Shown here: piece after piece, positions 2,519 through 62,121 of the stretch | How positions within the stretch are numbered: position 1 is the first letter of the stretch | Layout: the number at the start of each line of letters is the position of its first letter | Assembly: GCA_025999275.1 (NCBI GenBank) | Contig: AP024680.1 | Location: 244,728-308,727 of the forward strand | Source: Patescibacteria group bacterium | Lineage (GTDB): Bacteria > Patescibacteriota > Microgenomatia > UBA8517 | Direction of reading: 5' to 3' | DNA length: 64,000 nucleotides | Translations under genes and position numbers: made by a program | Notes under the pieces: generated by a model | The model's database searches: none | Told to the model about the DNA's origin: nothing | Seen by the model: only the letters and a program-made list of their open reading frames with translations

Positions 2519-3490
2519 ATGCCGCGAAAAATAGAGATATCACATAAAACAATTATTTTTACAGTTTTGTTTCTTGTTTCTTTATGGTTCTTATATTTTA
2601 TTAGGGATATTATCTTTCTTTTTTTTATATCCCTTCTTTTAATGGCTATTATAAATCCTTTTGTAACAAAGTTGTCACGGTTTAAAATACCAAGAGGTGT
2701 TTCAATTTTAGTTGCATATGTTGTCTCAATTGGCATATTTGTATTTTTAATATATTCTCTTTTCCCTGTAATAATTGATCAGACCACAAAACTAATAGGT
2801 CTCTTCCCATCATTAATAGAAAATATAGGACTACTACCAGTTTTAGGTGATTCATTAATTTCTCAGATAGCTTCTCATGTTGGTAATTTTTCAGAGTCTT
2901 TGGTTAAGTTTACTTTTTCGGCGTTTTCAAATGTTTTGTCTTTAATTACTGTTTTGGTTATGACTTTCTACCTTCTTCTTGGAAGGGAAAAAATTGAACA
3001 TGGTATTGATGGGGCATTTGGCAAAGAGATTAAAAGAAAAGTCAAACTTTTTCTTGATCTTTGGGAAAGAGAGCTTGGCGGCTGGATTAAGGGGCAGCTT
3101 CTTTTAATGCTTTTTGTCGGACTTTTGACTTTTATTGGTCTTATTGCTCTAAGGATACCTTTTGCCTTGCCGCTTGCATTGCTTGCTGGTCTTTTTGAGA
3201 TAATACCAATTATTGGACCTCTATTTTCAGCAATTCCTGCTGTTATTATTGGTTTTAATATTTCACCCCTTTTCGGTTTTTTGATTATCGTTCTTTACTT
3301 TTTGGTTCAGCAAATTGAAAATCATCTTCTTGTCCCAAAAATTATGGAGAAATCAACAGGTATTAATCCTGTTTTGGTAATTCTTTCTTTATCTATTGGT
3401 TCAAAAGTGGCTGGTTTTTTGGGCGTGCTTCTTGCAATTCCTGTTTTTCTTACTTTAAAGATTGCTCTCCGTGTTTTTTTGGCTAGATAG
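2519..3490 (+). CDS. AI-2E family transporter (PerM/UPF0118)
   Basis: Eight-TM profile. Conserved C-terminal block ALLAGLFEIIPIIGPLFSAIPAVIIGF, typical of the AI-2E family. Confidence 0.8.
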   Translation: MPRKIEISHKTIIFTVLFLVSLWFLYFIRDIIFLFFISLLLMAIINPFVTKLSRFKIPRGVSILVAYVVSIGIFVFLIYSLFPVIIDQTTKLIGLFPSLIENIGLLPVLGDSLISQIASHVGNFSESLVKFTFSAFSNVLSLITVLVMTFYLLLGREKIEHGIDGAFGKEIKRKVKLFLDLWERELGGWIKGQLLLMLFVGLLTFIGLIALRIPFALPLALLAGLFEIIPIIGPLFSAIPAVIIGFNISPLFGFLIIVLYFLVQQIENHLLVPKIMEKSTGINPVLVILSLSIGSKVAGFLGVLLAIPVFLTLKIALRVFLAR

Positions 3491-3539: not shown

Positions 3540-3858
3540 CCTTGGAGAGGGAGCAATCGCCCCGCTTTTTGCGGGGAGGAAAGTCCGGACAGCAGAAAGG
3601 CAGGATGCGCCGCGCAAGCGGTGACCCGAAAGGGCTGGTCCCCTCTTGTTAAAGGGGCGCTGGGTGAATTGACACCCTGCGAGAGCAACAGAGACGAGTC
3701 TTGTCTTTTCCTAAAGAAAAGATAAGGGTGAAACGGGCAATCCCCTCCGCTGCAACCTGCGAATTGGACGTTTGAGGTGCCTTTCCCGATGTCCTAAGGC
3801 AGGGCATTAGATAGATGATTGCTTAGAAACAGAATCCGGCTTACCACTCTCCAAGGCG
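3540..3858 (+). ncRNA. rnpB: RNase P RNA, bacterial type A-like and compact
   Basis: GGAAAGTCCGGAC (P4 5' strand), CGCGCAAGCGGTGA, AAGGGTGAAACGGG and ACAGAATCCGGCTTACC (P4 3' strand) are all present. P1 pairs ttggagag (3542-3549) with ctctccaa (3847-3854). The locus is GC-rich within an AT-rich genome. Confidence 0.85.
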
Positions 3859-3862
3859 CCAA

Positions 3863-4637: not shown

Positions 4638-6167
4638 ATGCTTGCCAAAATTGTATCAGGGGCCACTATTGGCCTTGAAGGTTGTTTGGTTGAAGTTGAA
4701 GTAGACGTGCCGGGGGAAGGCCTTCCGGCATTTAATATTGTTGGCCTTCCTGACAAGGCGGTTGAAGAGTCAAAAGAAAGGGTTAGATCTGCCCTTAAAA
4801 ATTCGGGCGCAGATTTTCCTGGTGGACGAGTCACGGTAAACTTGGCTCCTGCTGATTTACCAAAAGTTGGCCCTGCCTACGATCTCCCAATAGCCCTTGG
4901 CCTAATGGTTGCTTCAGGCCAAATTCCTAATTTAACCTCTGAATCTTTGTTTTTTGGCGAGCTTTCTCTTGATGGGAATTTAAGACACACAAACGGGGTA
5001 TTGCCAATAGTTTATCTTGCTCGTGAGAAGGGGATAAAGAAGGTTTTTATTCCCAAGGTGAACCAGGAGGAGGCCTCAATTGTTTCAGGAGTTTCTATTT
5101 ATCCAGTTGAGAATTTAATCAGTCTGGTTAGGTTTTTTATGGGCACTTTTGAAATCAAGCCAGTGGGGAAGACTGATTTATCGGTTCTTCTTAAAAATAC
5201 ACCCGCAGAGTTTGATTTTTCTGAAATTATAGGGCAAGAACATGCCAAAAGGGCAATGGAAATAGCAGCTGCTGGGTCGCACAATATTTTTATGAAGGGA
5301 ACACCTGGATCTGGAAAAACAATGTTAGCGCGCGCTTTGCCTGGCATTTTGCCAAGATTAACAGAAGATGAAGCTTTGGAAGTTACCAAAATTTATTCGG
5401 TTACTGGCAATTTATCATCAGGCCAGTCAATTGTAACAACCAGGCCTTTTCGAAGCCCACATCACACTACCAGTAGAGTTGGCTTGATTGGCGGAGGCTC
5501 GAATTTAACTCCAGGTGAAGTTTCTCTTGCGCACCGAGGGGTTTTATTTTTGGACGAATTTCCGGAATTTCCAAGAAATGTTTTGGAAAGTTTACGACAG
5601 CCATTGGAGGATGGAAAGGTGACAATCTCAAGGGCAAAAGGGTCGGTTACCTACCCCGCTTCTTTTCTTTTGGTTGCCGCCGCCAATCCCTGCCCTTGCG
5701 GCTATTATGGGGATCCAAAAAGAGTTTGCAAGTGCTTGCCCGGCCAAATCGCGAGGTATCAAAAGAGAATTTCAGGGCCAATTCTAGACAGAATTGATAT
5801 TCATATTGAAGTGCCTTCAGTTGAAACGCAAAAACTGGTTTCAGAGGCAAAAATTAAACCTGAGTTTTCAAAAGAGATTCAATCACGTGTTCAGAAGGCA
5901 AGAGAAAGACAAACCAAAAGATTTAAAGGAACAAATTTGAAGTCAAATTCAGAAATGGGAACAAGGGATGTTAAAAAATATTGCCCTCTTTCGGATGATT
6001 GTCGCACAATATTAAGAAGTGCTATTGCAACTTTGAATTTGTCTGCTCGAGGTTATTTTAAGGTTATAAAAGTTGCAAGAACAATTGCCGATTTGGAAGG
6101 ATCTGAAGAAATTTCAGTCAACCACATAGCAGAAGCTCTGCAGTACCGAATAAAAGACGAATCTTGA
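4638..6167 (+). CDS. YifB/ComM family Mg-chelatase-like AAA+ ATPase
   Basis: N-terminal Lon-like/ChlI domain. Walker A GTPGSGKT and Walker B LFLDEFPEF are present, with a C-terminal Mg chelatase subunit-like domain. Confidence 0.85.
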   Translation: MLAKIVSGATIGLEGCLVEVEVDVPGEGLPAFNIVGLPDKAVEESKERVRSALKNSGADFPGGRVTVNLAPADLPKVGPAYDLPIALGLMVASGQIPNLTSESLFFGELSLDGNLRHTNGVLPIVYLAREKGIKKVFIPKVNQEEASIVSGVSIYPVENLISLVRFFMGTFEIKPVGKTDLSVLLKNTPAEFDFSEIIGQEHAKRAMEIAAAGSHNIFMKGTPGSGKTMLARALPGILPRLTEDEALEVTKIYSVTGNLSSGQSIVTTRPFRSPHHTTSRVGLIGGGSNLTPGEVSLAHRGVLFLDEFPEFPRNVLESLRQPLEDGKVTISRAKGSVTYPASFLLVAAANPCPCGYYGDPKRVCKCLPGQIARYQKRISGPILDRIDIHIEVPSVETQKLVSEAKIKPEFSKEIQSRVQKARERQTKRFKGTNLKSNSEMGTRDVKKYCPLSDDCRTILRSAIATLNLSARGYFKVIKVARTIADLEGSEEISVNHIAEALQYRIKDES

Positions 6168-7901: not shown

Positions 7902-9188
7902 ATGGCGGCAAAAATTGATATTTTTGAGAAGCTTTCAAGGCGGATAAAAAAGTTTGCAAGAAAAATTTTCTTTTCTTTTATTTCCTATATTAAAAAGCTT
8001 ATTTTCCCTATTTATCTTTTCCCCATTAAAATTTTCACCTACAGTCTTTATTATTCGATTAGGTTTGCGTTTAAATTTATTTTTACCTTTTTTTCTTTGA
8101 TTTTTGAGACAATTATTTTTCCTTTCAAAAGCCTTAAAAATTTTTTAAAGTCAATCTTCTTTCTTGCGATTTTTGTTTACCTTTTGTTTTCAGTCCTTGT
8201 CATAGCTGATTATTTGAGCAGACAATACGGCAACTTTAGAAAGATTTTCTGTGATTTGGGAGTTAAAGAGAGATTAAGAAAATCGGTTGTCAGAGTAATT
8301 GGCGGTTATTCTCAAGGTTCCGGATTTTTTATTTCTCCAAACAGGGTTGTTACAAATTTCCATGTTGTTGATGGAGAGATTGCGCCCAAAATTATTCTTC
8401 CAGACGGCAGAATGATAATTCCTGAAAAGTTTCTTGGCAACAAAGAAGCCGATATTGCTGTTATCTTTACAAAAGAGGAATATCCACAACTAGTTTTGCC
8501 AGTGAATCAAAGAGACATTCTTGAAAAGATAGCCAAAGGCGAAGTTGGTTTCGAAAATTATCAATCAACTTTATCGGAAGACGCCATTGTCTTTGCCGCT
8601 GGATATCCATTGGGCACAGAAATTAAAGGAAACCCTACAATTTTAAAGGGAAGATTTTTAGATTACAGAATCAGCTCTCCGATTGTGTACATACAAACAG
8701 ACATCACTTTGGTTGAGGGGATGAGCGGAGGTCCTTTTACTGATGTTTGCGGAGAGGTGGTCGGCATTAACACTAAAGGAGTTGGGGGAATGTCTTTTTT
8801 TCTTTTTTTAAGAGATGCTTGGAAATATATAGACGATCAAAAAGGCGAGCTTCTTTCTGATAAAGATATTAGAAAAATTGCTTTTGATCCTTCAAAATCC
8901 CCCCAAGAGGCGGTCTCTGCCTTTTATGCCTATATCAGCGCAAGAAGGATGGAAGACGGTTTTTCTCTTTTGAGTGAAAAATATAAACAGAAGACAAATC
9001 TTGAAGAATGGTCTAGTCGTTTTAGGGATGTAATTGATATCCAAGTTTGGAAAGTAGAGCTTGAGGATAAAAAGAAAAACAGAGTTTTTGTTAAGTTTTC
9101 AACCAAAAACTGGACAAATCAGAATGTTGAAATACATCATTACGAAGGTACTTGGGAAGTTGTTTTGGAAGATGGGTTTATAAAATGA
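7902..9188 (+). CDS. Trypsin-like serine protease with N-terminal TM region and C-terminal domain of unknown function
   Basis: Catalytic His at GSGFFISPNRVVTNFHVV, Asp at ADIAVI, Ser at EGMSGGP. These are chymotrypsin-fold S1 motifs. Confidence 0.65.
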   Translation: MAAKIDIFEKLSRRIKKFARKIFFSFISYIKKLIFPIYLFPIKIFTYSLYYSIRFAFKFIFTFFSLIFETIIFPFKSLKNFLKSIFFLAIFVYLLFSVLVIADYLSRQYGNFRKIFCDLGVKERLRKSVVRVIGGYSQGSGFFISPNRVVTNFHVVDGEIAPKIILPDGRMIIPEKFLGNKEADIAVIFTKEEYPQLVLPVNQRDILEKIAKGEVGFENYQSTLSEDAIVFAAGYPLGTEIKGNPTILKGRFLDYRISSPIVYIQTDITLVEGMSGGPFTDVCGEVVGINTKGVGGMSFFLFLRDAWKYIDDQKGELLSDKDIRKIAFDPSKSPQEAVSAFYAYISARRMEDGFSLLSEKYKQKTNLEEWSSRFRDVIDIQVWKVELEDKKKNRVFVKFSTKNWTNQNVEIHHYEGTWEVVLEDGFIK

Positions 9189-9254
9189 ATAAAAGCAATA
9201 TAAAAGAAGTCCAAAATCCTGATTTTTATTGGATATGGGAGTAATGAATAAATT

Positions 9255-9638
9255 TTGATTTTTAATATGGAAAGAAATCTTTGTTTGGAATCAGGATGCA
9301 AGGGATATTGCTGTGAGGATATAGATATTGAGGTTACAGGTTGTGAGAGAACTAGGCTTTTTCCAAAGGCAAAAGCAGTTTCTTCAATTAAACAGCTGGC
9401 AGAAATTAAAGAATCAGGAAATGTCGGTGTGTTTTATACAAAATATGAAAGAGAGGGTTTGGAAGGAGATTTTTATATTGTTTGTATAAACGGACCCTGC
9501 CCCAATAGACTTGAGGATGGCAGTTGTGCAAAGCATAGTGAGCGCTCTTATGCAGCAAGAAATTTCAAAATTGGCAGCCGAGAGTGCAATGAGATTCGCC
9601 TCTCCCACGGCCTTCCTACAATTGCAGATGAGATTTAA
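9255..9638 (+). CDS. Cys-rich hypothetical protein with a YkgJ-type CxxCxxCC putative Fe-S/zinc-binding motif
   Basis: ESGCKGYCCED motif plus additional Cys residues (CINGPCPN, GSCAKH). Confidence 0.4.
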   Translation: MIFNMERNLCLESGCKGYCCEDIDIEVTGCERTRLFPKAKAVSSIKQLAEIKESGNVGVFYTKYEREGLEGDFYIVCINGPCPNRLEDGSCAKHSERSYAARNFKIGSRECNEIRLSHGLPTIADEI

Positions 9639-9720
9639 AATCACAAAACTCTTAGATCTTAAATCGTAAATCATAACATAATGAATTTTAAGGCTAAAAG
9701 GGGTAAAATAGGATTAAATT

Positions 9721-11523
9721 ATGGCGGGAGATAACAATAACTCAGGTATCGATAAAACAGAGCTTGTCTGGCCCGGCAAGCGCAAAGAGGTTGAGCGGGT
9801 AGAGCTGCCGTTTCAGACGATTGAGACGATTAACCTACCGCGCGGTACTCGCCAAGATGAACTATTTGGAGACAAAACAGAAGGATGGAAGAATCGGCTC
9901 ATTTGGGGCGACAATCTTTTAGTGATGGGTTCGCTTCTCAAAGAGTTTGCCGGAAAAATAAACCTTATTTACATTGATCCGCCTTTTGCTACCGGAGATG
10001 ATTTTTCTTTTGAAGTACAGATTGGTGATGGTATTGAAATTACCAAAGAGCCATCGGCAATGGAAGTAAAAGCCTACCGCGATACTTGGGGCAAAGGTCT
10101 TCAGTCATATCTTCAAATGATGTACGACCGACTGGTTTTGATGAAAGAACTTTTAGCGGACGATGGCTCAATTTATGTACATTTAGACGCTACTGTTGGA
10201 CATTATGTTAAAACAATAATGGATGAAATTTTTGGGAAGGAGAATTTTCGCCGTCAAATTATATGGGTAATGACTGGAATAGCTGGGTATAAGGGTTTGG
10301 TAAATAATTATGTTCGTGGGCACGATCTTATTCTGTACTACACTAAAACTAGCAATCACGTCTTTAATAAAACCTACATTCCATATTCCGAAAAACAGCT
10401 TGCACGCTTTTCAGGCATTGATGAAAAAGGGCGACGATATAAACCAATCACAAAAGATAGGAGACTTTATTTAGATGAGGCAAAAGGTATTCCAATAACA
10501 GATGTTTGGTCAGATATTGTAGGTTTTCATACCATCGTTAACGCCCCGGAAGATGTTAAATATCCCACTCAAAAACCGGAAAAATTACTTGAACGGATAA
10601 TTAAAACATCTTCAAATGAAGACGATCTTGTCGCTGACTTTTTCTGCGGCTCCGGTACCACTGGTGTAGTGGCGGAGAAACTGGGCAGGCGATGGATTAT
10701 GTCCGATCTCGGACGCTACGCTATCCACACTACTCGCAAGCGGCTTTTAGATATGGGTGCCAAGCCTTTTATTGTGCAAAATCTTGGCAAATACGAGCGC
10801 CACCGCTGGGCAAAACTCAATGGAAAATACAAGGACTACATCAAATTTATTTTAGAGCTTTATCACGCCGAGCCGGTGGATGGCTTTACTCACCTGCATG
10901 GCAAGAAAGATAAGAGTTTTGTCCGCGTAGGCAGCGTAGACGCGCCAGTTACGCTTTCGGAAATCCGTGAGGCGCTCTCCGAATGTAAAGAAAACAATAT
11001 CAAAAAGTTGGATGTGCTTGGCTGGGAGTGGGAAATGGGCTTGCATGATTTGGTCAAAGAAGAGGCGGAAAAATATGGGGTCAAACTAGCTACTTTACAG
11101 ATTCCGAGGGAAGTAATGGAATTATCTGTCGCAGACGCCCAAAAACATGATATTCAATTTTACGAATTGGCGTATTTGGAAGTTGAGGTGAAAGTTGAGG
11201 GCAAGCACGCAACCATAACGCTCAAAGATTTTATTATTCCCAATCCGGAGCTCTTGCCGGAAGAAGTGAAAGGTAAAGTCAAAAGCTGGAGCGACTTTAT
11301 TGACTACTGGGCAGTGGACTGGATGTTTAATCAGCACGAAGAAGAAACAGAAGAAGATGACACCTTCCACAATATGAACCAGCGCTACCGCACCCGCAAG
11401 GAGCCAAAGTTGGAGGTTTCAATGAGCTATGAGTATAAAAACAAAGGTCGATATAACATCCTTGTGAAGGTTATTGATATTTTTGGAAATGATACGACGA
11501 AGCTAATTGAAGTAAAAGTATGA
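9721..11523 (+). CDS. mod: Type III restriction-modification system methyltransferase (Mod), beta-class N6A/N4C DNA methyltransferase
   Basis: Motif IV LIYIDPPF precedes motif I VADFFCGSGTTGVVA, the beta-class order typical of Type III Mod. A variable target-recognition region lies in the middle. GC is high relative to the flanking sequence. The stop overlaps the next start (ATGA). Confidence 0.8.
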   Translation: MAGDNNNSGIDKTELVWPGKRKEVERVELPFQTIETINLPRGTRQDELFGDKTEGWKNRLIWGDNLLVMGSLLKEFAGKINLIYIDPPFATGDDFSFEVQIGDGIEITKEPSAMEVKAYRDTWGKGLQSYLQMMYDRLVLMKELLADDGSIYVHLDATVGHYVKTIMDEIFGKENFRRQIIWVMTGIAGYKGLVNNYVRGHDLILYYTKTSNHVFNKTYIPYSEKQLARFSGIDEKGRRYKPITKDRRLYLDEAKGIPITDVWSDIVGFHTIVNAPEDVKYPTQKPEKLLERIIKTSSNEDDLVADFFCGSGTTGVVAEKLGRRWIMSDLGRYAIHTTRKRLLDMGAKPFIVQNLGKYERHRWAKLNGKYKDYIKFILELYHAEPVDGFTHLHGKKDKSFVRVGSVDAPVTLSEIREALSECKENNIKKLDVLGWEWEMGLHDLVKEEAEKYGVKLATLQIPREVMELSVADAQKHDIQFYELAYLEVEVKVEGKHATITLKDFIIPNPELLPEEVKGKVKSWSDFIDYWAVDWMFNQHEEETEEDDTFHNMNQRYRTRKEPKLEVSMSYEYKNKGRYNILVKVIDIFGNDTTKLIEVKV

Positions 11524-52417: not shown

Positions 52418-52488
52418 TGCCCGGTCGTCTAATGGTAGGACACAGCGCTCTGGACGCTGGAATCGGGGTTCGAATCCCTGCTGGGCAG
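52418..52488 (+). tRNA. tRNA-Gln (anticodon CTG). CCA not encoded.
   Basis: Manual cloverleaf: acceptor tgcccgg/ctgggca, D-arm gtct-aatggta-ggac, anticodon arm cagcg-CTCTGGA-cgctg, T-arm cgggg-ttcgaat-ccctg. Confidence 0.85.
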
Positions 52489-52590
52489 CAAATTCTTCGC
52501 CAAGCCTCCAGGATTGTATGCGGCTCTGAAATCAAAATGGTTGTTAGTAGTTTGTAGTGGACTGAACCTATCTCACTATTATGATATCCA

Positions 52591-52627
52591 TTGTTGGAAG
52601 TTAATCAACTCCCGGAGTTGTAATGTT
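52591..52627 (+). repeat. Left copy of a ~37-bp direct repeat (35/37 identical to 60914..60950)
   Basis: ttgttggaagTtaatcaactcccggagttgTaatgtt. Contains the internal palindrome caactcc-c-ggagttg. Lies 103 nt downstream of tRNA-Gln. Confidence 0.6.
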
Positions 52628-52930
52628 GGAATGTTGGGATTATGATTCTTGGGGTTTAGTCCTTGAAGATTCTAACTCTATCGCAAAAACTCCTAACTTT
52701 TCCTTAAATGGCGGGTATAAACTTTTTAAAACTCTAAGAATTTGGTCTTTGGACATTCCTGGCACGATTCTTTCAGCTTCCTCATGCTCCAATATTCTTC
52801 ATGCTCATTGTTCAAAAGAAATCTCATTCCATGTTTTAACTTTTGGATGTCTCTATACCTAACCAAGACTTTTCGATTACTTTTATCCAAAAAACCAGAT
52901 GAAATATATTTAGAATCTATTTTGCCCTGT

Positions 52931-53965
52931 TTAGTTATCGATTAATTCCTCAATTTTATCTTTATTTTCTAGAACCCATTCGATAAGTTTCTCTAATCCA
53001 AAATTAATATCAGTTTTTGGTCTCCAGCCTAACTGATCTATGAGTTTTCTATTATTACTCACAAAAATTTTTTGATCTCCTGGTCTCCAGTCATCGTAAG
53101 AAATTTCAATTTTCTTTTTAAGTTTTTTCTCTAATAATGAAAGCGTCTCAATTATTGAAATCGAATTGCTTGGTCCACCACCAATATTAAAGATCTCTCC
53201 CTTCGTTTTCTCAATACTTCTTGTTGCTAAGTCCCAAGCTGAGAATAAATCATCTATATATAAAACGTCTCTTGTTTGTTTACCATTCCCGAAAATAGTA
53301 ATTTTTCTGTTTAATAAGAGGGCAATTACAAACCAAGCAACCCAGCCTTGGTCTTCAACACCGAATTGGTGTGGACCGTATATACAAGACTGGCGAAAAA
53401 CAACTGTAGAGAGGCCGTAGATTCTTGAATAGTCTCGCACATATTGGTCGGCAGCCCCTTTTGAACAACCATAAGGGGAATATAAATCAAGCGGATTCGA
53501 TTCTGAAATCCCGTTTATGTTGCTATACAAATATCGTGTTTTACTCTCTGTAATAGGTATGTTTTGCATATTTCCATAGACCTTGTTTGTTGATGAATAG
53601 ACCAATATTGCCTTAGGGTTTTTCTTTCTTATAGCTTCCAGTAGGTTGAACGTACCAACGGCATTAATTTCGAAGTCTTCTCGAGGATTTTGGACAGAAG
53701 TGGTAACGGCAGTTTGCGCAGCCAAATGATAAATTATGTCTGCCTGAACAACTTGTTCCTCTAGTTTTTGTGTATCAAAGCGGATATCCGCTTTGATAAC
53801 TGTCAACTTGTTTTTACCATACCTCCTAAGAAGCCATTGTGCATTTAAACTAGACCCTTTCTTAGAAAAATTATCTAAGATAATAACTTTATCGCCTCTC
53901 GACAATAAATTATTGGAAAAATTAGTTCCTATAAAACCTGCACCACCTGTAATCAAGTATTTCAT
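52931..53965 (-). CDS. NAD-dependent sugar epimerase/dehydratase (SDR extended family)
   Basis: MKYLITGGAGFIGTNF Rossmann entry and catalytic YSPYGCSKGAADQY (YxxxK). Start set at MKYL. Confidence 0.8.
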   Translation of the reverse strand: MKYLITGGAGFIGTNFSNNLLSRGDKVIILDNFSKKGSSLNAQWLLRRYGKNKLTVIKADIRFDTQKLEEQVVQADIIYHLAAQTAVTTSVQNPREDFEINAVGTFNLLEAIRKKNPKAILVYSSTNKVYGNMQNIPITESKTRYLYSNINGISESNPLDLYSPYGCSKGAADQYVRDYSRIYGLSTVVFRQSCIYGPHQFGVEDQGWVAWFVIALLLNRKITIFGNGKQTRDVLYIDDLFSAWDLATRSIEKTKGEIFNIGGGPSNSISIIETLSLLEKKLKKKIEISYDDWRPGDQKIFVSNNRKLIDQLGWRPKTDINFGLEKLIEWVLENKDKIEELIDN

Positions 53966-54025
53966 GGTTAATACTGACAATTATATCACTAATTCGCTAT
54001 AATTTGTTGTGTGGAATAAAAATTT

Positions 54026-55186
54026 ATGAAAAAACGGAGATGCCTTGTTATTAGCAGTCCTTATTCTTGGGGAGGAGGAATAAAAACAATGGTAGATGAA
54101 GGTTTAAAGATATTAGAATCTTTAGGATATAAAACTACTTTAGTAATGCCTTCCTATACTAAAGAAAGTAGGAACAATGAAATAAAAGCTAAAAAGATTT
54201 CCACACCATGGTTTATAAATTTCGATAAATACCCCCTACTACATCACATTGTGTTTGGATTAAAGTTAAAAAATCTTCGGCAAAGATATGATATTGCCCT
54301 AGCTATAGTAGCCACTTCTCACACTGCACTACCTCTTGCATTAAGTGGAAAGCGCTTCGGTATTTGGGTAGCTACTAACTATGCGGATGAGCTAGAAGCA
54401 AAATTTAATTCTAACTTAGGAGATGAGCCAGCTAAAAGATTAAAAAACAGTATTCAGTGGCAATTTCTTGAAAAGATAGAAAAATATGTCCTAAGAAAAG
54501 CCACTAGTATTCTAGCTCTAAGTGATTATACCGCGTCTAGACTTCTTAGACTTGAACCACGTATCAAATCAAAACTAAGTGTTTTTCACCCACCAATTAA
54601 TACCGATTTGTTTTCCCCAGGAATATCAACTAAAAAGGTTAATGGATTAATAGTTAATACTGGAAGGATAAATGACCCGAGAAAAAATACACATTTACTA
54701 ATTAAATCATTCGCAAGAATCTTAAAAAGTTTTCCACAAGCTAGACTACTATTGGTTGGAGATAAAGCAGATGGCCATTTAATTAAGCTTATAGAGTCAC
54801 TGGGGTTAAAAAACTTCGTTGAAATTATTCCAGAAAAGCCACGGGAGGAGATAACAAGCTATTTAAGAAGGGCAGAAGTTTTCGTGGCCACACCGGTGCA
54901 GGAGGGATTAGGGATTTCAATTTTGGAAGCGATGAGCTGTGGTTTGCCAGTCGTAATAACTCGTTGTGGAGGACCAGAAACTATAATTAAAAGAAGCGGA
55001 GGGGGTATTATTACTAATAATAACGAAAAGGATTTTTCAGAAGCAGTCATTAACCTATTGTTAAATAAGCCCCTTCGCATAAAGATGGGATTTAAAGGAA
55101 GAAAATATATCAGAAACAACTTATCTTTTACTTCACAAAGAAAAAGATTAGCACTGGAACTTAATAAACAGTATGCAAAACAATAG
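54026..55186 (+). CDS. Glycosyltransferase family 4 (GT-B, group 1)
   Basis: EGLGISILEAMSCGLPVVITRCGGPETII, the GT4 E-x7-E region. Confidence 0.75.
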   Translation: MKKRRCLVISSPYSWGGGIKTMVDEGLKILESLGYKTTLVMPSYTKESRNNEIKAKKISTPWFINFDKYPLLHHIVFGLKLKNLRQRYDIALAIVATSHTALPLALSGKRFGIWVATNYADELEAKFNSNLGDEPAKRLKNSIQWQFLEKIEKYVLRKATSILALSDYTASRLLRLEPRIKSKLSVFHPPINTDLFSPGISTKKVNGLIVNTGRINDPRKNTHLLIKSFARILKSFPQARLLLVGDKADGHLIKLIESLGLKNFVEIIPEKPREEITSYLRRAEVFVATPVQEGLGISILEAMSCGLPVVITRCGGPETIIKRSGGGIITNNNEKDFSEAVINLLLNKPLRIKMGFKGRKYIRNNLSFTSQRKRLALELNKQYAKQ

Positions 55187-55820
55187 GAAAATTTACTTAA
55201 TCGATCTCGATAACTGTCTGTATAAAATCAAGGACGTTCCGGGCTTAGTAAATACTTTCGAAACCAGAATTACTGCCTGGCTTGCTAATAAACTTGGGTG
55301 TAGCATTAATAATGCTGAAAAAGAAAAAGTTAAACTATATAAGAAGTTTGGAGGAGCGCCACGTTGCCTCGTAAGGGCATCAATTATTAAAAACAAGAAT
55401 GAGTTGATAAACTGCGTTGATTTTATCCACGATTTCAACGTTAGTGCTTGTGGAATAGATAAAAACTTGAATCTAAAACAAAAACTCAGTGAATTAGATG
55501 AAGAGTTATACCTTTTCACAAGTTCTTATGTAAAATACGCAAAACAAATGCTTGTGGCCTTGGGCGTGTTAGATCTATTTTCTGACATCATAGATATTTC
55601 GAAAGTCGAATACTCATTTAAGGACGAAACAATTACTTACACAAAAATATTTAGTTTGCTGAGCATATCTCCCAATAAGATTACCATGGTAGATGATTCT
55701 TTAGAAAATCTATTAGTTGCGAGTAGAATGGGTATTAAAAAATGTGTTTGGGTTAATCATGGGGAAACAAAACAACGTGCCGATTTTGTGAGGTCTATTA
55801 CCAGTATTATGGATTTATAG
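55173..55820 (+). CDS. HAD family hydrolase (pyrimidine 5'-nucleotidase-like)
   Basis: HAD motif I IYLIDLDNCLY. C-terminal TMVDDSLENL/GIK fit motifs III/IV. Confidence 0.5.
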   Translation: MQNNRKIYLIDLDNCLYKIKDVPGLVNTFETRITAWLANKLGCSINNAEKEKVKLYKKFGGAPRCLVRASIIKNKNELINCVDFIHDFNVSACGIDKNLNLKQKLSELDEELYLFTSSYVKYAKQMLVALGVLDLFSDIIDISKVEYSFKDETITYTKIFSLLSISPNKITMVDDSLENLLVASRMGIKKCVWVNHGETKQRADFVRSITSIMDL

Positions 55821-55824
55821 AAAA

Positions 55825-56364
55825 CTAAGTTTGGGGATAGGAACTTTCTGGGTCACCAATATAACCTCTAATAATTACTAAATTCATAAACTTCTTGGTG
55901 TAATAGTGGTGTTCAAATGCTAAGAAATCATATTTGCTCCAAACTGACATGTGAGCTTCTAACTTATGGCCCCTCCATGAATACTGAATATATTTAGAGG
56001 GAAAGACAATTAAAATATAACGACTTCTATACATCAAATAATTAATTAAATCTTCTCCGTCTGATTTCTTTAGATGTTCTAGGCAATCACCAATTATTGC
56101 TATATCAGTTTTAAAATCTGGTTTATTGTCGAAGAAGGTTTCTATCCTAGAACAGTATACCCTGTCATAGATTGAATTCAGTTTAAATTTCTTGATATAA
56201 GAGGCGTTAGCTTCTATGGCCACTACTCTGGATTTGGGCAAAATTTTTTTAATCATCTTGCCATATTTTCCAGCTCCAGCACCAATATCTATATAGTTTC
56301 TAAATTTATGCTCCAGAATAAAATTTTCAACTTGTTTATCAAATGTTGGATCGGAATAGGGCAT
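55825..56364 (-). CDS. Small class I SAM-dependent methyltransferase (FkbM-like)
   Basis: Motif I YIDIGAGAGKYG. 179 aa. Confidence 0.5.
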   Translation of the reverse strand: MPYSDPTFDKQVENFILEHKFRNYIDIGAGAGKYGKMIKKILPKSRVVAIEANASYIKKFKLNSIYDRVYCSRIETFFDNKPDFKTDIAIIGDCLEHLKKSDGEDLINYLMYRSRYILIVFPSKYIQYSWRGHKLEAHMSVWSKYDFLAFEHHYYTKKFMNLVIIRGYIGDPESSYPQT

Positions 56365-56365
56365 A

Positions 56366-57115
56366 TCAATCTAAATAATTATCAATCAATGATTTTAAAT
56401 CATTTGGGAAAGGAAATCGATATTTTCTAAGATATTGCTTTGTCACCTTGTCGTTTAAATCTCTCGGTAAAAATCTAAAAGCGTAGTTATTCTGTTTCAA
56501 TCCTTTTATATACTTGAGGTGGTAGTGATATGCTCCATCTAAACACAATGTTTTCGATGTAGGCTTAAGAAAACAATCTGGAACATTTTCATATTCTCCT
56601 TTTTGATACTTCTGAAATCTTGTTAATACTCTAACATGGGGATCTACCATTAATACTCCGTTCCAAACAGCCTCATAAACATGTAAATAGAAATTTTTAT
56701 CAAAAATGTGATTGCAAGTAATAGCAATACTGTTATAAAACGGATCTCTAACAACCTTTTCAATAAATGGTTTAAGATTCCTACTTATAAGTTCGTCTCC
56801 GTCTATAAGCACTAGGGCGTCGAATTTAAAATTCGAAAAAATAAAATCAAGAAAAGTGTTTCGCACTTTCATCTCGTGTTGTAAATCCCTAGAACCATTT
56901 GGAAGATAATTAATCATAGAATGTTGGAAAAGTGGTTCTATTAAAGTAAGTTTGGGAATGTTGTGTCTTCTCGATAAAATTGATAAAATACTCCTAGTTT
57001 TATCAGAACTATGATCATCGTAGATAACTATTTGATTCACCCACGATATTGAAGTAATCATAGATTCTATAAACAATTCTGCATTCTTAATTATTGAGGC
57101 TGCGAGTATTTTCAT
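56366..57115 (-). CDS. Glycosyltransferase family 2
   Basis: N-terminal GT-A fold with IVIYDDHSSDKT (DxD-containing). 2-nt gap to the upstream gene. Confidence 0.65.
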   Translation of the reverse strand: MKILAASIIKNAELFIESMITSISWVNQIVIYDDHSSDKTRSILSILSRRHNIPKLTLIEPLFQHSMINYLPNGSRDLQHEMKVRNTFLDFIFSNFKFDALVLIDGDELISRNLKPFIEKVVRDPFYNSIAITCNHIFDKNFYLHVYEAVWNGVLMVDPHVRVLTRFQKYQKGEYENVPDCFLKPTSKTLCLDGAYHYHLKYIKGLKQNNYAFRFLPRDLNDKVTKQYLRKYRFPFPNDLKSLIDNYLD

Positions 57116-58449
57116 CTTAATAAATTATAAAGATAATCATAATTAGGTAAACTGCCTACAATTGATGGTGAAAGAAGTGATTGATACAAGGTATGATAAT
57201 ATTTGATAATTTTCTCAGGGTCAAAGTTTTTCTGAAAAATTTTCTTACTTTTCACACCCATCTTAATCCTCAGCTCTTTAGATTCTATTAATCTCCCCAA
57301 CAGGTCAGCAGTGGATTCTGTATCTCCCACTTTGACAACATAACCATTTACACCGTTTTTGACTTGGAAAGCAAGCCCCCCTACATTTGTAACCAATACT
57401 GGTTTTTCATGAAACATCGCTTCGGTAATTGCTAAACCAAAACACTCCATTCTCGACAACATAACTACAATATCAGAGCGCCTATATATTTCTGAAAGGT
57501 TCATATAATCAACACTGCCCGCAAAGATAACTCTATTTGTTAAATTGAGGTCTCTAACCAAATTTTGTGCTTCTAAAAGGTAATTCCTTCTTACATTAGA
57601 GATATTATCTGTAAACGATCCGCCACCCACTAAAACTAAGTAAGAGTTCTTGAATTTATTGCTAATTTTTGAAAACCCTTCTATTAGTTGTGTATGACCC
57701 GATTTCGCATCAAAACGCTGGATACAAGTAATTACAATAGATCCTGGTGGAATTTGTTTGAAAACACTAGGAAGCTCTGTTACTCTACTCATAACATTTT
57801 TATCTATCATGGGGGGGAGGACTATTGATTTTTGGGGCTTTAATCCATGTTTTATGGCAATCTCTGAATACTGAGGGATAGAAAAAACCATTTTATCTGC
57901 TTTATTACCATATCTAACAAGCCATTTGGCAACTGTTCTATCTATATTATCGATCAACGGCGCATGCAAGCTAAAAATTGACTTCACTTCTAATGGAATA
58001 TTTGACAATCCAAGCATAACCTGATAATCCTGGAAATGGACGAGATCTATATTGTTGTTAGAGAGGACATCAAGTATGCGTTTTGAGAATAACTCCGAGC
58101 AAAAAACAAAGTCTTTATAGCCAGGAACATCATCAATCGTTTGATACTTAAACTGTCTTATCCCATGCAAGTGCTGGTATATTTCCTCTTTAAAGGCTGC
58201 ATAACCTTGAAATACTTCCTTAGGAATCTCTGATCGAGAGATAATATACTCTTTGATAGGGTAGCCCAAGGCTTCTGAAGCCGATACATTAGTTGACATT
58301 TCAAAATGTATCGCATAAATCTTATAGTTAAGTTGTGACAGATAACGAGAAAGATTAAGGAGCAAAGTTGACACTCCGCCAACCCTAGGATAGAAAGACT
58401 GACTTACAAATAAAATAGATCGCTCTTTATTTCCGTTAAAGATTTTCAT
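57112..58449 (-). CDS. Glycosyltransferase family 4 (GT-B)
   Basis: MECFGLAITEAMFHEKPVLVTNVGG C-terminal signature. 4-nt overlap with the downstream GT2 gene. Confidence 0.7.
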   Translation of the reverse strand: MKIFNGNKERSILFVSQSFYPRVGGVSTLLLNLSRYLSQLNYKIYAIHFEMSTNVSASEALGYPIKEYIISRSEIPKEVFQGYAAFKEEIYQHLHGIRQFKYQTIDDVPGYKDFVFCSELFSKRILDVLSNNNIDLVHFQDYQVMLGLSNIPLEVKSIFSLHAPLIDNIDRTVAKWLVRYGNKADKMVFSIPQYSEIAIKHGLKPQKSIVLPPMIDKNVMSRVTELPSVFKQIPPGSIVITCIQRFDAKSGHTQLIEGFSKISNKFKNSYLVLVGGGSFTDNISNVRRNYLLEAQNLVRDLNLTNRVIFAGSVDYMNLSEIYRRSDIVVMLSRMECFGLAITEAMFHEKPVLVTNVGGLAFQVKNGVNGYVVKVGDTESTADLLGRLIESKELRIKMGVKSKKIFQKNFDPEKIIKYYHTLYQSLLSPSIVGSLPNYDYLYNLLR

Positions 58450-59200
58450 AAGTTTGTTTTGATTTTGTTGTAGGCAAGAGTCTTATTCCGCCATCAACGA
58501 GCTCACTATCAAGATTATCTAGTATTCCACAAGCAACATCTTTTGGATTATCCAAGTCAGACTCGGAAAATTTTTTCACAAGCTCCTTCGCACCAATGGC
58601 GTTTTTGGCAATATTTGTTTTTATGCCAGTTGGACAGACAAGAATAAATTTCACTCCCTGTTCTTCAAACTCTGGTGCTAACGACCTGAATAGTCCAGCC
58701 AAACCCTCTTTTGCAGCTGAATAAACTGAAAATTTCTTGTGTCCGGGTTTTATACCAGCAAGGGATCCTAATTGAACCACATATTTCTTGTCTTTAGCTT
58801 TAATTATCACTGGTAGCATTTTCTTTATTAACATTATGGCACTTGTTAAGTTTACATCGATTACGGTTTTAACTTCCGAGTCATTAAGATAAAGAAAGGG
58901 TTTATACATTGCGACTCCTGCGGTGTTAATGAGTAAATTTAGATTGCCGAGTGCCTTTATAGAAAAGTTCGCTAATTTATCAACTTGACGTGAATTAGTG
59001 ATGTCCGTTTTAATAACAAATAGTTTTGCTCTTTTGCCTGAATATCGATTTTTAATCTTCAAAAGATTACTTATATTTCGACTGGCTGCTACTACTTTAG
59101 CGCCTCTCTTTAACAACTCTCTTACTATTTCCAAACCCAAGCCAGAAGAAGCTCCAACTACTAGACAGTGCATGTTCGTAAAATCAGGTAATTTTTTCAT
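58436..59200 (-). CDS. SDR family oxidoreductase
   Basis: CLVVGASSGLGLEIV (TGxxxGxG) and catalytic YSAAKEG. Start moved to MKKLPDF to avoid overlapping the upstream acetyltransferase. Confidence 0.7.
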   Translation of the reverse strand: MKKLPDFTNMHCLVVGASSGLGLEIVRELLKRGAKVVAASRNISNLLKIKNRYSGKRAKLFVIKTDITNSRQVDKLANFSIKALGNLNLLINTAGVAMYKPFLYLNDSEVKTVIDVNLTSAIMLIKKMLPVIIKAKDKKYVVQLGSLAGIKPGHKKFSVYSAAKEGLAGLFRSLAPEFEEQGVKFILVCPTGIKTNIAKNAIGAKELVKKFSESDLDNPKDVACGILDNLDSELVDGGIRLLPTTKSKQTYENL

Positions 59201-59753
59201 TTCTCGGGTGAATTTTACGTATAAATTTCGCTGGGGAACCTCCCCATAATTCAGCTTGTGGAACATCCTTGGTTACAACCGAACCCGCAGCAATCCAAGA
59301 AAAATCATTTACCTGTAAACCCGTATTTCCAGCTACTAATTTTGTATCGTTCATAAGCCAGCAAAATTTACCTACGCGAATACTTTGTTGAGTGCCTATT
59401 AAAATTTCTTGCCAATTAGCCTTTTTATCTTCCAAGGGATGGTTGTTGGTTATAAAACTTACATTTGCTCCTATAAGGGTATAGTCACCAATAGAAATCT
59501 TACCCATACCAGCCATATCTGTTGATGCGGGAACTTTTACACCTTTCCCGATCTCTATGTTTTCTGGATACCATACTTTCACCCTATGATGAACTATAGA
59601 ACCCTCCCCTATTTTAGCCCCTGCTAACCTTAACCAATAGGTGTATAACCTTGACCAAATATCTGTAGGCATTTCACCTAAAAATCCTGACCACAATCTT
59701 GCATCAGACTCACAAAATAAGCGATATATCGAGCGAAAAATTAAATGACCCAT
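59184..59753 (-). CDS. Hexapeptide-repeat (left-handed beta-helix) acetyltransferase
   Basis: Imperfect [LIV]-G-x4 hexad repeats (IGEGSIV, IGKGVKV, IGDYTLIGANVSF), as in sugar O-acetyltransferases. Confidence 0.7.
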   Translation of the reverse strand: MGHLIFRSIYRLFCESDARLWSGFLGEMPTDIWSRLYTYWLRLAGAKIGEGSIVHHRVKVWYPENIEIGKGVKVPASTDMAGMGKISIGDYTLIGANVSFITNNHPLEDKKANWQEILIGTQQSIRVGKFCWLMNDTKLVAGNTGLQVNDFSWIAAGSVVTKDVPQAELWGGSPAKFIRKIHPRNEKIT

Positions 59754-59785
59754 ATTTGATATTTTATCATTTTTACATTATTTTG

Positions 59786-59791
59786 TATAAT
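59786..59791 (+). promoter_or_regulatory. Candidate -10 element (TATAAT with adjacent upstream TG) for erm
   Basis: ttttgTATAATat located ~20 nt upstream of the erm SD. No convincing -35 and no leader peptide or attenuator seen. Confidence 0.3.
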
Positions 59792-59810
59792 ATAGCAAAG
59801 GAGGGAGGTA

Positions 59811-60701
59811 TTGAGAAGAACTGTGTCTGAAAGAGGTGGTATCGAGCGGGGAGGTCGTGAACTATGGCAGTCACAGAACTTTCTGAGAAGGCCAGAGTTT
59901 GTAGCAAGTCTAGTAGAAAGAACTGATATAACCCGTGACGACCTTGTTATTGAAATAGGTCCTGGGAAAGGGATAATTACTCAGCAATTAGCACGCAGAG
60001 CTAGAAGAGTAATAGCAGTTGAGATAGACAAGGGATTGGCAGGAAACCTTCGAGCCTCTTTCCAGAATTCACCCAATGTTGAAATTGTTGAAGCTGATTT
60101 CTTGAAATGGTGGTTGCCAAGAGAACCTTATAAAGTTTTTTCCAATATTCCTTTTAATATGACTGCCGATATTGTCAGAAGACTTACAGAAGACAGAAAC
60201 CCTCCACTAGTTGCCTACTTAATTATGCAAGATAAAGCAGCATTTCGTTTTATGGGGAGGCCAAAAGATTCACAAACATCAATTTTATTAAAACCATGGT
60301 TTGAAGTAGAAATAGTAGCAAACATAGATAGGAGAGAATTTACCCCAGTTCCTAAAATAAATGCAGTTCTTGCAAAGTTTAGAAAAAGAGAGCAGCCTTT
60401 AGTTAAACCTGAGTTTTGCCAATGGTTCAGAGATTTTGTTGTTTATGGATATAATCAGTGGAAACCTACAATACTTGATGCGTTTAGAGAAGTATTTAGT
60501 CCAAAACAGAGGAATATTTTAGAAAGAGAGCTGAGAATTAGAGGTGCAAGACCCTCTGATTTAACACTTGAACAGTGGCTTAAACTATTTGAAACATTTT
60601 GTGTTTATGTACCTTCTGATAAAAAAGAAGTTGTTAAGGGGGCTGAAGAAAGACTGAAGAGACAGCAAGGAAGCTTAAAGAAACGGCATAGAACTAGATA
60701 G
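59811..60701 (+). CDS. erm: Erm-family 23S rRNA (adenine-N6)-methyltransferase, putative macrolide-lincosamide-streptogramin B resistance determinant
   Basis: SQNFL, EIGPGKG and NIPFNMTADI, then an Erm-like C-terminal domain (IDRREFTPVPKINAVLAKFRK, LTLEQWLKLFE) that resembles actinomycete Erm proteins rather than KsgA. GC is clearly higher than the flanks. SD aaggaggg 6 nt before a TTG start. Confidence 0.7.
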   Translation: MRRTVSERGGIERGGRELWQSQNFLRRPEFVASLVERTDITRDDLVIEIGPGKGIITQQLARRARRVIAVEIDKGLAGNLRASFQNSPNVEIVEADFLKWWLPREPYKVFSNIPFNMTADIVRRLTEDRNPPLVAYLIMQDKAAFRFMGRPKDSQTSILLKPWFEVEIVANIDRREFTPVPKINAVLAKFRKREQPLVKPEFCQWFRDFVVYGYNQWKPTILDAFREVFSPKQRNILERELRIRGARPSDLTLEQWLKLFETFCVYVPSDKKEVVKGAEERLKRQQGSLKKRHRTR

Positions 60702-60913
60702 ATTTAGGCTACGGCTAAAAGTTGCTGGGTAGATTTGAGAGTAAGCTCTGGAAATTCCAGGATGTTTAACCAGTTGGCTCGCCTGAAATCGTTCCATTTG
60801 TCCAGCCATTCTTTGCTCAATCTAAGGAATTTCATAGTGCTTTGAAACCAAATGATTGTTAATTTTTATACTCTTCCTGTGGGGGGTTAGCTTGTTTTAT
60901 GGTGCGAAACCCG

Positions 60914-60950
60914 TTGTTGGAAGCTAATCAACTCCCGGAGTTGGAATGTT
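60914..60950 (+). repeat. Right copy of the ~37-bp direct repeat
   Basis: ttgttggaagCtaatcaactcccggagttgGaatgtt. 35/37 identical to 52591..52627, in the same orientation. Confidence 0.6.
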
Positions 60951-61056
60951 TTTTGAAATGTGGGGTTTGCAAGCAATAATCAATCTTTGTTTTTCTTCTA
61001 TTTTGATCTTTCCAATTACAAAGTATAGTTGGAAGCCAAGGATAAGATGTTGCTTT

Positions 61057-62121
61057 TTATATTTGGCTTAGTTTGTAAAGCACTTGTTCGAACTTCTCTG
61101 TTGAATAGTCCTCCATTGGCCATTTAGCTATAATACCAAAAGTTGTTGTCATTTCTTTTTGGATTTCAGCTCTAGGAAGCAATTCTCTAATCTTTTTTCT
61201 TACAATTTGGTCAACTTTCTTGGTTCCCCAAAAGTCTAAATTAACTTTTTTGCTTTGAATGTATAAAGAAATAGAAATTTTATCATTATAACTAGTCATT
61301 ACATGGAAAGTTAAACTTTTTGGTGTTTTTGCTACATCTACATTTTCTATTTTTTTTCTTCCTTCTCTCAAGTCGTTAAAGAATGTGATTAGTTCTTTAA
61401 CTTTTTCCTGCTCTGGCAGACCTTGGTAAGCTTTTATGAAATCATCATCTGTCGGTATAACTTTAACTCCTGTTTTCCCTATATCTTTTTTAACTTCTGC
61501 TCCATAAAGTTTGGGAATTAAGATTTCGAATTCTTGGTGTTTATAGTATTCGAGTTCTATGGCGTAAATGCTAAATTCACTATTGTTGTTTAAGAAAACA
61601 ATTAAATCCTTAAGTTGATCATGCAAATGGTCCATCAAAACCACAAATTTGAAATTGCCGTCGTTCAAATTTCTTCTGAGATTTTCTAATAGTGTTTTTT
61701 CTTCTTCCTCTGAGATACCAAAAAAGTCATTCAATCTTTGCCTTAGATTCTGATTAAAATCTTTACTTGTATGCGTTTCTATCTGATCAATAAAATCATT
61801 AAAATCTCGATAGTTAGACCAGAGAGAGGCGCCGTAGTCTAAAACTTGGGCGACAACAGTTCTTTTGTCGGGATTTTTATAAAGCTTTGTTTCGATTAGA
61901 TAAATTTCACCTTCTTTGTCAATTCCCACAGCATCAATTGGTCCGCTTTTGGTAGAAAATTCCCGAGCCAAAATTAAAAGCCTAATGTCTTCTTTAATGT
62001 CGTAAAGAGGAATACTTTCTGGGTTGTCGTAGATGTATTGTTGGAGGTGATCTTCCAGCTCAAAATTGCTTTTATCAAGCTTAATCGCATTTTTACCGTT
62101 TTTTGAGATAATAATTGCCAT
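61057..62121 (-). CDS. Hypothetical protein with an N-terminal PD-(D/E)xK nuclease-like (NucS/RecB-like) domain
   Basis: GPIDAVGIDKEGEIYLIETKL is a D...E-x-K arrangement in a beta-hairpin context. The C-terminal 200 aa are unassigned. Confidence 0.4.
   Translation of the reverse strand: MAIIISKNGKNAIKLDKSNFELEDHLQQYIYDNPESIPLYDIKEDIRLLILAREFSTKSGPIDAVGIDKEGEIYLIETKLYKNPDKRTVVAQVLDYGASLWSNYRDFNDFIDQIETHTSKDFNQNLRQRLNDFFGISEEEEKTLLENLRRNLNDGNFKFVVLMDHLHDQLKDLIVFLNNNSEFSIYAIELEYYKHQEFEILIPKLYGAEVKKDIGKTGVKVIPTDDDFIKAYQGLPEQEKVKELITFFNDLREGRKKIENVDVAKTPKSLTFHVMTSYNDKISISLYIQSKKVNLDFWGTKKVDQIVRKKIRELLPRAEIQKEMTTTFGIIAKWPMEDYSTEKFEQVLYKLSQI

Follow-up and report, generated by a model that had tools for sequence, protein, structure and literature searches.

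We analysed a stretch of DNA of 64,000 nucleotides (64 kb; referred to below as the window) from a Patescibacteria group bacterium (assembly GCA_025999275.1, contig AP024680.1, positions 244,728 to 308,727), and within it an erm-like gene at 59811–60701 (+ strand; positions are those of the window unless a relative is named). The analyses consistently showed the encoded protein to be an Erm-family methyltransferase and not the related housekeeping enzyme KsgA, on the combined evidence of curated hidden Markov model (HMM) cut-offs, sequence and fold matches in the PDB, functional residues and phylogeny. They also point to a long-resident chromosomal gene, with no support for recent acquisition. 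We propose, with a probability of roughly 0.7, that it encodes an S-adenosylmethionine (SAM)-dependent rRNA adenine N6-methyltransferase of an Erm(42)-like subfamily, that it is a long-standing resident providing intrinsic resistance, and that the glycosylation genes beside it are cargo. The genome is a metagenome-assembled genome (MAG) of a streamlined, uncultivated member of the Patescibacteria, as the first-pass annotation, made from the sequence alone, had supposed. In the following, labels of the form L0xx denote contigs of relatives, and P0xxx denote homologous proteins.

Assignment to the Erm family

The Erm-family rRNA adenine N6-methyltransferase is encoded by an uninterrupted open reading frame (ORF) of 296 residues, with a TTG start and a stop codon at 60699–60701. 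It holds WQSQNFL, EIGPGKG, NIPFNMTADI, IDRREFTPVPKINAVLAKFRKREQPL and LTLEQWLKLFETF; the motifs SQNFL, EIGPGKG and NIPFNMTADI had been quoted correctly in the first-pass annotation, and its assignment of the protein to the Erm family rather than to KsgA is supported by the evidence described here. The protein matches the Pfam family RrnaAD with 162 bits. It passes the NCBIfam Erm equivalog NF000499 (Erm23S_rRNA_broad) with 237.2 bits against a cut-off of 212, and falls below the KsgA equivalog TIGR00755, for which it scores 154.4 bits against a cut-off of 171. The same distinction holds throughout its clade: each of the 62 sampled members matches the Erm model with E ≤ 1e-62, a level that none of their matches to the KsgA model attains. 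The nearest allele model is Erm(42) (NF000077), on which the protein scores 197 bits against a cut-off of 600, and by this measure it does not belong to the Erm(42) allele or class.

Among PDB sequences the best match is ErmE (6nvm; 117 bits, aligned through residue 262), followed by Erm38 (89 bits) and ErmC', while chains of KsgA and Dim1 score at most 80 bits. The structure was predicted using AlphaFold2 with 62 homologues, giving a predicted local distance difference test score (pLDDT) of 91.2 and a predicted template modelling score (pTM) of 0.87. The predicted fold has two domains, a Rossmann N-domain and a helical C-domain, and Foldseek places ErmE (TM 0.88, root-mean-square deviation 2.4 Å) and Erm38 (TM 0.80–0.82) in ranks 1–4. 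Structures of KsgA and Dim1 follow close behind, and the fold alone therefore discriminates weakly between the two families.

The SAM-binding motif I, EIGPGKG (59952–59972, + strand), corresponds to residues 48–54, of which E48, G50, G52 and G54 are invariant in the 62 clade members. Motif II (VEID) and motif III (ADF) are present, and the catalytic motif IV, defined for N6-adenine methyltransferases as [D/N/S][I/L]P[Y/F] (PMC12652253), is NIPF at 60144–60155 (+ strand; residues 112–115), with P114 and F115 invariant; motifs I–IV as a whole are invariant in the clade. F115 occupies the position of Y134 in ErmE, where phenylalanine is also found in ErmA, ErmX, Erm38, Erm50 and Erm42. The adenine-pocket residues F196 and P198 of ErmE correspond to F177 and P179, and the basic-ridge residue (K164 in ErmE, R134 in ErmC) corresponds to R146. 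The pocket, motif and basic-ridge positions are invariant or nearly so over the 62 members, and the positions of ErmE Y134, F196, P198 and K164 are reported to be critical or essential in ErmE and ErmC (PMC8906542). The ratio of nonsynonymous to synonymous substitution rates (dN/dS) is about 0.07 in comparison with the syntenic orthologue in L003, and the gene is under purifying selection. We note that one element of the earlier argument does not stand: LTLEQWLKLFE had been taken as an Erm-specific C-terminal signature, and the same 11 residues are found in L010, a genuine Patescibacteria KsgA that scores 228 bits on TIGR00755 (cut-off 171).

Many homologues, up to 82% identical, come from Shapirobacteria, Woesebacteria, Dojkabacteria and other Microgenomates-type groups of the Candidate Phyla Radiation (CPR), and PGAP already names many of these clade members "23S ribosomal RNA methyltransferase Erm". 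The best match in the GTDB-representative collection is 78% identical, and an exhaustive search gave 492 clusters (at 50% identity) with E ≤ 1e-30. Judging from these sequences, the clade appears to be widespread in, and characteristic of, Microgenomates-type CPR bacteria. Homologues from Ktedonobacteria are 44–49% identical, and the closest named determinant is Erm(42), with 39.6% identity over residues 21–296. In a neighbour-joining (NJ) tree of 38 sequences (260 columns, 300 bootstrap replicates), the CPR clade has 82% bootstrap support, its grouping with Erm(42) 82%, and the grouping of both with the Ktedonobacteria homologues 90%, and a KsgA-like family from CPR genomes forms a separate clade with 100%. 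A larger NJ tree of 182 sequences (144 representatives added) contains long-branch artefacts and was used solely to show the closer relatives of Erm(42). In this tree Erm(42) is nearer to other environmental proteins than to the CPR clade, so that the latter represents a single branch within a broad Erm(42)-like radiation rather than the sister of Erm(42). Among viral contigs in IMG/VR, we found only distant relatives (34–42% identity, lacking the tail described below), and none of the CPR clade.

Two of the taxonomic labels met in this analysis call for comment. L003 (CAZQCJ010000008.1) is labelled as a MAG of an uncultured Gammaproteobacteria. Its GC content of 34% and its collinearity with the Patescibacteria window make it almost certain that this contig belongs to the CPR and was mis-binned. 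The label "Ignavibacteria" attached to P0029 may be a further case of mis-binning.

The protein ends in a basic C-terminal tail of about 30 residues, ...KKEVVKGAEERLKRQQGSLKKRHRTR (60609–60698, + strand; residues 267–296). A tail of this kind, ending in HR(T/N)R, is common to the CPR clade, the Ktedonobacteria homologues and Erm(42), and is absent from ErmA, ErmB, ErmC, Erm50 and the KsgAs; the C-terminal extension of ErmX is unrelated. The ErmE and Erm38 references in the alignment are truncated fragments, taken from a PDB alignment. Within the 62 clade members K291, R294 and T295 are invariant and R296 is nearly so. The tail is predicted to be helical, with pLDDT dropping from about 96 to 60. 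On the sequences compared, it appears to be a derived feature that joins the CPR clade, Ktedonobacteria and Erm(42). We speculate that this basic segment might make extra contacts to RNA.

A separate KsgA-like gene, the presence of which the first-pass annotation had named as a check, accompanies the erm-like gene in two relatives. L011, with an erm-like protein 79% identical to that of the window, has a second RrnaAD gene at 8908–9726 (− strand), immediately downstream and convergent, and contig Ga0063162_1002064 (L013/L015) contains both the erm-like P0019 and the KsgA-like P0136, the KsgA-like gene lying at 3001–3810 of L015. Since the two are found on one contig in each case, both paralogues occur together in this lineage. 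The KsgA-like family is widespread in Microgenomates (Woesebacteria and related groups), and its JGI name is that of 16S dimethyltransferases. Its members (P0121–P0240) are very divergent: the best model is TIGR00755, with 103 bits against the cut-off of 171, and they have NPPY in place of N(L/I)PY, DQFF in place of GQNF, and an insertion in the C-domain. Given that they score lower than the erm-like protein on the KsgA model, automated annotation can swap the two names. Such a swap is apparently the origin of the NCBI name of the window protein: the identical protein is found in a Patescibacteria MAG record, where the submitter named it "ribosomal RNA small subunit methyltransferase A". A closed genome of 901,682 bp has the KsgA-like gene too, and no close erm-like protein from it is among the best 120 matches; this suggests that the KsgA-like gene is a core gene and the erm-like gene accessory. 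The search for KsgA-like proteins used the L011 paralogue as query against a set of 5.8 billion proteins. One candidate for the KsgA of the window genome, P0126, was rejected on finding that it belongs to another closed genome, CP055307.1.

Genomic setting and history of the gene

The first-pass annotation had described the gene as visibly GC-richer than its neighbours and as horizontally acquired. Neither description is borne out. The GC content of the gene is 38.0%, compared with 34.9 ± 4.2% for the 55 ORFs of the window, which is 0.75 standard deviations above the mean, and 27% of the ORFs have at least this GC content. The adjacent upstream gene has 38.4% GC, and the GC content at third codon positions (GC3) of the erm-like gene, 25.3%, is below the window mean of 29.3%. 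There is no integrase or transposase among the flanking genes, and no tRNA-derived or attachment (att) repeat was detected, as no word of at least 12 nucleotides from the tRNA-Gln region recurs downstream.

The gene is also at the same place in its close relatives. The sister strain L001 has 99.8% nucleotide identity across 52430–60821 and is identical through the erm-like gene, differing further downstream. L003 is collinear with window positions 52952–60699 (7,764 bp, 77.2% nucleotide identity), and the homology stops exactly at the stop codon of the erm-like gene. The features expected of a recently acquired mobile gene, namely deviant composition, mobility genes or att repeats, and absence from close relatives, were thus not found here.

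A wider comparison gives the gene a consistent frame. In the window, tRNA-Gln(CTG) (52418–52489, + strand) lies 7.3 kb upstream and serves as a synteny anchor, and the interval between it and the erm-like gene is occupied by a block of eight glycosylation genes (52931–59753), so that the earlier placement of the gene at the edge of a glycosylation block is correct. A tRNA-Gln on the same strand is found upstream of the erm-like gene at a distance of 2.4 kb in L011 (tRNA at 5572–5645), 3.8 kb in L012/L013 (4097–4169 in L012) and 5.2 kb in L025 (4716–4789). The frame of tRNA-Gln, variable cargo and erm-like gene therefore recurs in four lineages, with erm-like proteins 54–79% identical to that of the window. 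The cargo in the other lineages consists of genes for a GSDH protein plus a hydrolase, of MORN and EamA genes, and of HD, NUDIX and deaminase genes. The interval looks like an insertion hot spot adjacent to a tRNA, with no recognisable integrase. A gene of about 500 codons before the tRNA is common to the window and L011. We considered the identity between GSDH proteins (50%) as a yardstick of genome distance to L011 and L012 and set it aside as unreliable, because the window copy is 50 kb away and is perhaps a paralogue. The simplest reading of the frame is that tRNA-Gln and the erm-like gene form an old arrangement into which the glycosylation block was inserted as cargo, which is the reverse of the picture first drawn.

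The erm-like family is not immobile within the CPR. In L024 the gene lies inside a mur/fts cluster, and in L014, L025 and L027 it is found among miscellaneous genes. There is also a conflict between gene tree and synteny: the window allele is 78–82% identical to alleles of non-syntenic genomes and only 71% identical to that of the syntenic L003, whose own allele is 80% identical to that of L002. The proportion of synonymous differences (pS) between the window and L003 is 0.73 for the erm-like gene, the highest in the shared block, compared with 0.42–0.65 for its neighbours. That the window allele is nearer to non-syntenic alleles than to L003 is a hint of allelic exchange within the CPR, possibly allelic replacement by recombination.

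One further context deserves separate mention. L026 (GCA_018062335.1, JAGOSJ010000001.1, a contig of 38.1 kb) has an erm-like gene of the CPR clade at 10001–10876, whose protein is 58% identical to that of the window, in a phage-like region. Here the gene belongs to a small cargo module on the + strand (2-hydroxyacid dehydrogenase, dCMP deaminase, a short-chain dehydrogenase/reductase and the erm-like gene), surrounded on the − strand by genes for a major head protein, a terminase large subunit (PHROG, E 8e-91), a portal/adaptor protein and an endolysin. The arrangement resembles a Woesebacterium phage or prophage that bears an Erm-type gene. A dCMP/cytidine deaminase gene lies at most one or two genes from the erm-like gene in L014, L025 and L026, in contexts that are otherwise different, and a 2-hydroxyacid dehydrogenase gene is also found near it in two of these three.

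Expression signals and flanking DNA

The gene has its own Shine-Dalgarno sequence and TATAAT element, both of which had been noticed earlier. The putative promoter (59764–59791, + strand) consists of TTATCA (59764–59769), a spacer of 16 nucleotides and TATAAT (59786–59791), with 10 of 12 matches to the consensus. The number of such promoter-like sites near the gene (7) is not above that expected from shuffled sequences (4.6 ± 2.1). Over the putative promoter, L003, the 77%-identical relative, has almost the same sequence as the window. The Shine-Dalgarno sequence, AAGGAGGGAGG (59798–59808, + strand), contains AAGGAGG (59798–59804), of which GGAGG (59800–59804) ends 6 nucleotides before the TTG; L003 carries GAGGAGGA at this position. 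The TTG start is kept in L003, and the GTG at 59823, used as the start in the NCBI record (292 residues), is ATA in L003, so the form of 296 residues is the better supported.

Only 57 bp separate the gene from its divergent upstream neighbour, and a leader peptide or attenuator of the kind typical of inducible erm(A), erm(B) and erm(C) does not fit within this space. The earlier statement that none is apparent is therefore confirmed, there being no room for one. With a strong Shine-Dalgarno sequence and its own promoter-like site, and with neither leader nor attenuator, the gene is probably not regulated by translational attenuation, and expression without attenuation is plausible. An operator could nevertheless be present in the highly conserved promoter region. 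The whole intergenic segment (59754–59810) is about 95% identical to 8981–9040 of L003, whereas the flanking proteins are just 68–85% identical. Conservation of this segment exceeds that of the surrounding coding DNA, pointing to a bidirectional promoter or operator under constraint.

Downstream, a terminator-like hairpin followed by a T-run, TCAACTCCCGGAGTTGG (60928–60954, + strand), lies about 230 nucleotides past the stop codon. It is also present in the sister strain L001 and is likely to be the terminator of the erm-like gene. The 3′ untranslated region (60702–61056) has no credible match in Rfam, the sole match being to a plant miRNA model with 18 bits, and shows no conservation with L003. 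Within it, just upstream of the shared hairpin, 60822–60910 comprises about 90 bases more than are found in L001; this segment has no Rfam match and no homology to L003. The ORF that follows directly (61057–62121, − strand; 354 residues) is strain-variable and without a counterpart in L001, which has a gene for a B12-binding radical-SAM protein in its place. Its product has a PD-(D/E)xK-like motif, GIDKEGEIYLIETK. Among the candidate defence families of PADLOC it matches PDC-S11 (E 1.9e-16), while Pfam yields just a sub-threshold match to RnlA_toxin. At the other end of the window, 3541–3859 (+ strand) matches bacterial RNase P class A RNA with 109 bits against the Rfam gathering score of 100, a score that fits a divergent CPR RNase P RNA.

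Proposed function, alternatives and significance

If the enzyme works like characterised Erms, its N-terminal Rossmann domain would bind SAM through EIGPGKG, VEID and ADF, and the target adenine would be flipped into a pocket lined by NIPF (F115) and F177-x-P179. The helical C-terminal domain would dock on an assembly intermediate of the 50S subunit, a role established for ErmC', where this domain is a docking module on the 50S precursor (PMC12652253). Methylation would then fall on N6 of A2058 in 23S rRNA and weaken the binding of macrolides, lincosamides and streptogramin B (MLSb). The A2058 target, the resistance phenotype and the mode of expression are inferred, and the enzyme might add either one methyl group, as Erm(42) does, or two. 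The resistance would be intrinsic rather than recently acquired.

Several observations weigh against this proposal. The score exceeds the cut-off for Erm by a modest margin (237 against 212 bits), and the identity to any characterised Erm is at most 40%. R163 and E160 of ErmE are not conserved, being replaced by F145 and K142, respectively; these positions are reported to be variable among Erms (PMC8906542). The deep split between Erm and KsgA has just 51% bootstrap support in the NJ tree, and the 182-sequence tree nests the long branches (ErmA, ErmB, ErmC and the CPR KsgA-like family) inside the radiation. A search with the erm-like protein (tblastn) found no second RrnaAD gene within the 64-kb window, and the window genome's own KsgA-like protein was not found among the best 120 matches, down to 62% identity. 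Finally, a 2026 preprint on CPR methyltransferases expressly left MLS genes out of its testing (bioRxiv 10.64898/2026.07.13.738296).

Three other explanations were considered. We consider it very improbable that the protein is a housekeeping KsgA/RsmA which dimethylates A1518/A1519 of 16S rRNA and has come to look Erm-like through CPR divergence. The submitter's name for the identical protein would agree with this, as would a score on the KsgA model (154 bits) above that of the CPR KsgA-like paralogue (103 bits) and the fact that neither a second RrnaAD gene in the window nor the genome's own KsgA was located. Yet the protein fails the KsgA cut-off and passes that for Erm, its nearest structures are ErmE and Erm38, and it groups with Erm(42) at 82–90% bootstrap and shares the Erm(42)-type tail. 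Relatives with erm-like proteins 78–79% identical bear a separate KsgA-like gene on the same contig, and the closed 901,682-bp genome, with its KsgA-like gene and no close erm-like protein among the best 120 matches, is what one would expect of a core and accessory pair. Little more credit can be given to the original suggestion of a mobile MLSb resistance gene that was recently acquired horizontally and landed at the edge of a glycosylation island. The normal composition (including GC3), the lack of integrase, transposase and att repeat among the flanking sequences, the shared position in the sister strain and L003, the promoter region conserved with L003, the recurrent tRNA-Gln frame in four lineages with erm-like proteins only 54–79% identical, and a clade that is monophyletic for the CPR (82% bootstrap) and characteristic of its Microgenomates-type members, all argue for residence, even though the family is patchy among CPR genomes and varies in context (L024, L014, L025 and L027), one copy is in a phage-like region (L026), the window allele is nearer to non-syntenic alleles (78–82%) than to L003 (71%) and has the highest pS in the block, and the DNA directly downstream is strain-variable.

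The remaining explanation, which we regard as unlikely but as deserving somewhat more weight, is that the protein is a paralogue of the RRAD family with an Erm fold that acts on another rRNA nucleotide or in ribosome biogenesis in the CPR, and has no role in resistance. CPR rRNAs and ribosomes are unusual. The gene is widely conserved and under strong purifying selection in minimal genomes, the L024 copy is embedded in a core cell-wall operon, the invariant clade-specific tail has no known function, some RNA-contact positions of ErmE differ, and MLS candidates from the CPR were excluded from the testing in the 2026 preprint; all of these speak for such a role. On the other hand, Erm(42), which has the same tail, is a demonstrated Erm that gives macrolide and lincosamide resistance, conservation extends to the adenine pocket and the key basic-ridge residue, and the curated Erm model is passed by 62 of 62 members. 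We therefore prefer the reading of the gene as a long-resident Erm of the Erm(42)-like subfamily.

Comparison with known systems places the protein more exactly. Erm(42) (NF000077), a 23S rRNA A2058 N6-methyltransferase found in integrative conjugative elements of Pasteurellaceae and on IncC-type plasmids, shares the NIPFN motif and the tail ending in HR(N/T)R, and is similar in length (301 residues, compared with 296). It is located next to IS91-like elements on mobile elements, whereas the window gene is a long-standing chromosomal resident. Desmolaize 2011, as cited in PMC6028734, describes Erm(42) as a monomethyltransferase of the Erm family. ErmE (Saccharopolyspora erythraea, PDB 6NVM) and Erm38 (PDB 7F8A) are, like the window gene, chromosomal genes of intrinsic type; the F-x-P adenine pocket is conserved between them and the window protein, as is the key basic residue. 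Their identity to the window protein is about 32%, R163, E160 and R171 of ErmE have no counterparts in it, and nothing corresponding to the HRTR tail was seen among the actinobacterial references used, of which ErmE and Erm38 are truncated. KsgA/RsmA proteins belong to the same RrnaAD superfamily and have the two-domain fold and the SAM and catalytic motifs in common with the window protein, but are 19–28% identical to it and form a separate clade.

Erm-like genes in the CPR have already been surveyed and automatically annotated as Erm, and the window gene adds a member to them. One survey reported 3,077 "erm" hits in 4,062 CPR genomes (PMC8651080), and the 2026 preprint reported 13,375 in 12,552 genomes (bioRxiv 10.64898/2026.07.13.738296). 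Both leave Erm and KsgA unseparated, and the preprint makes no mention of KsgA. Given this, and numbers that amount to about one "erm" per genome, the counts very probably mix housekeeping KsgA with true Erm-type genes, and the message of this locus for resistome surveys is chiefly one of caution. The two can be told apart in the CPR by passage of the Erm cut-off, by the HRTR tail and by a divergent KsgA-like gene that is adjacent or co-occurs. Classes of erm are by convention defined at 80% amino-acid identity. As its identity to any named class is below 40%, the protein would constitute a new erm class if its function is confirmed.

If its function is confirmed, the protein would also provide an environmental context for Erm(42). 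No direct source of Erm(42) was identified in the sequences compared, the nearest relatives being unnamed environmental proteins. A broader scenario, which we put forward as a rather doubtful one, is that the clade is an ancestral, mostly vertically inherited trait of Microgenomates-type CPR bacteria, in which constitutive methylation of A2058 would shield episymbionts from macrolide-type compounds of their hosts or neighbours; that the tail-bearing radiation (CPR, Ktedonobacteria and others, occasionally phage-borne) would be the reservoir of the veterinary and clinical Erm(42); and that the invariant HRTR tail would be a new, subfamily-specific element for docking on ribosome precursors. The value of the present analysis lies in the correction of "acquired" to "resident", in the recognition of the Erm(42)-type tail, and in the disambiguation of Erm and KsgA in the CPR. 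Presence in a reduced genome does not by itself make an erm-like gene an acquisition; in the present case the gene is long established, and the genes beside it arrived later.

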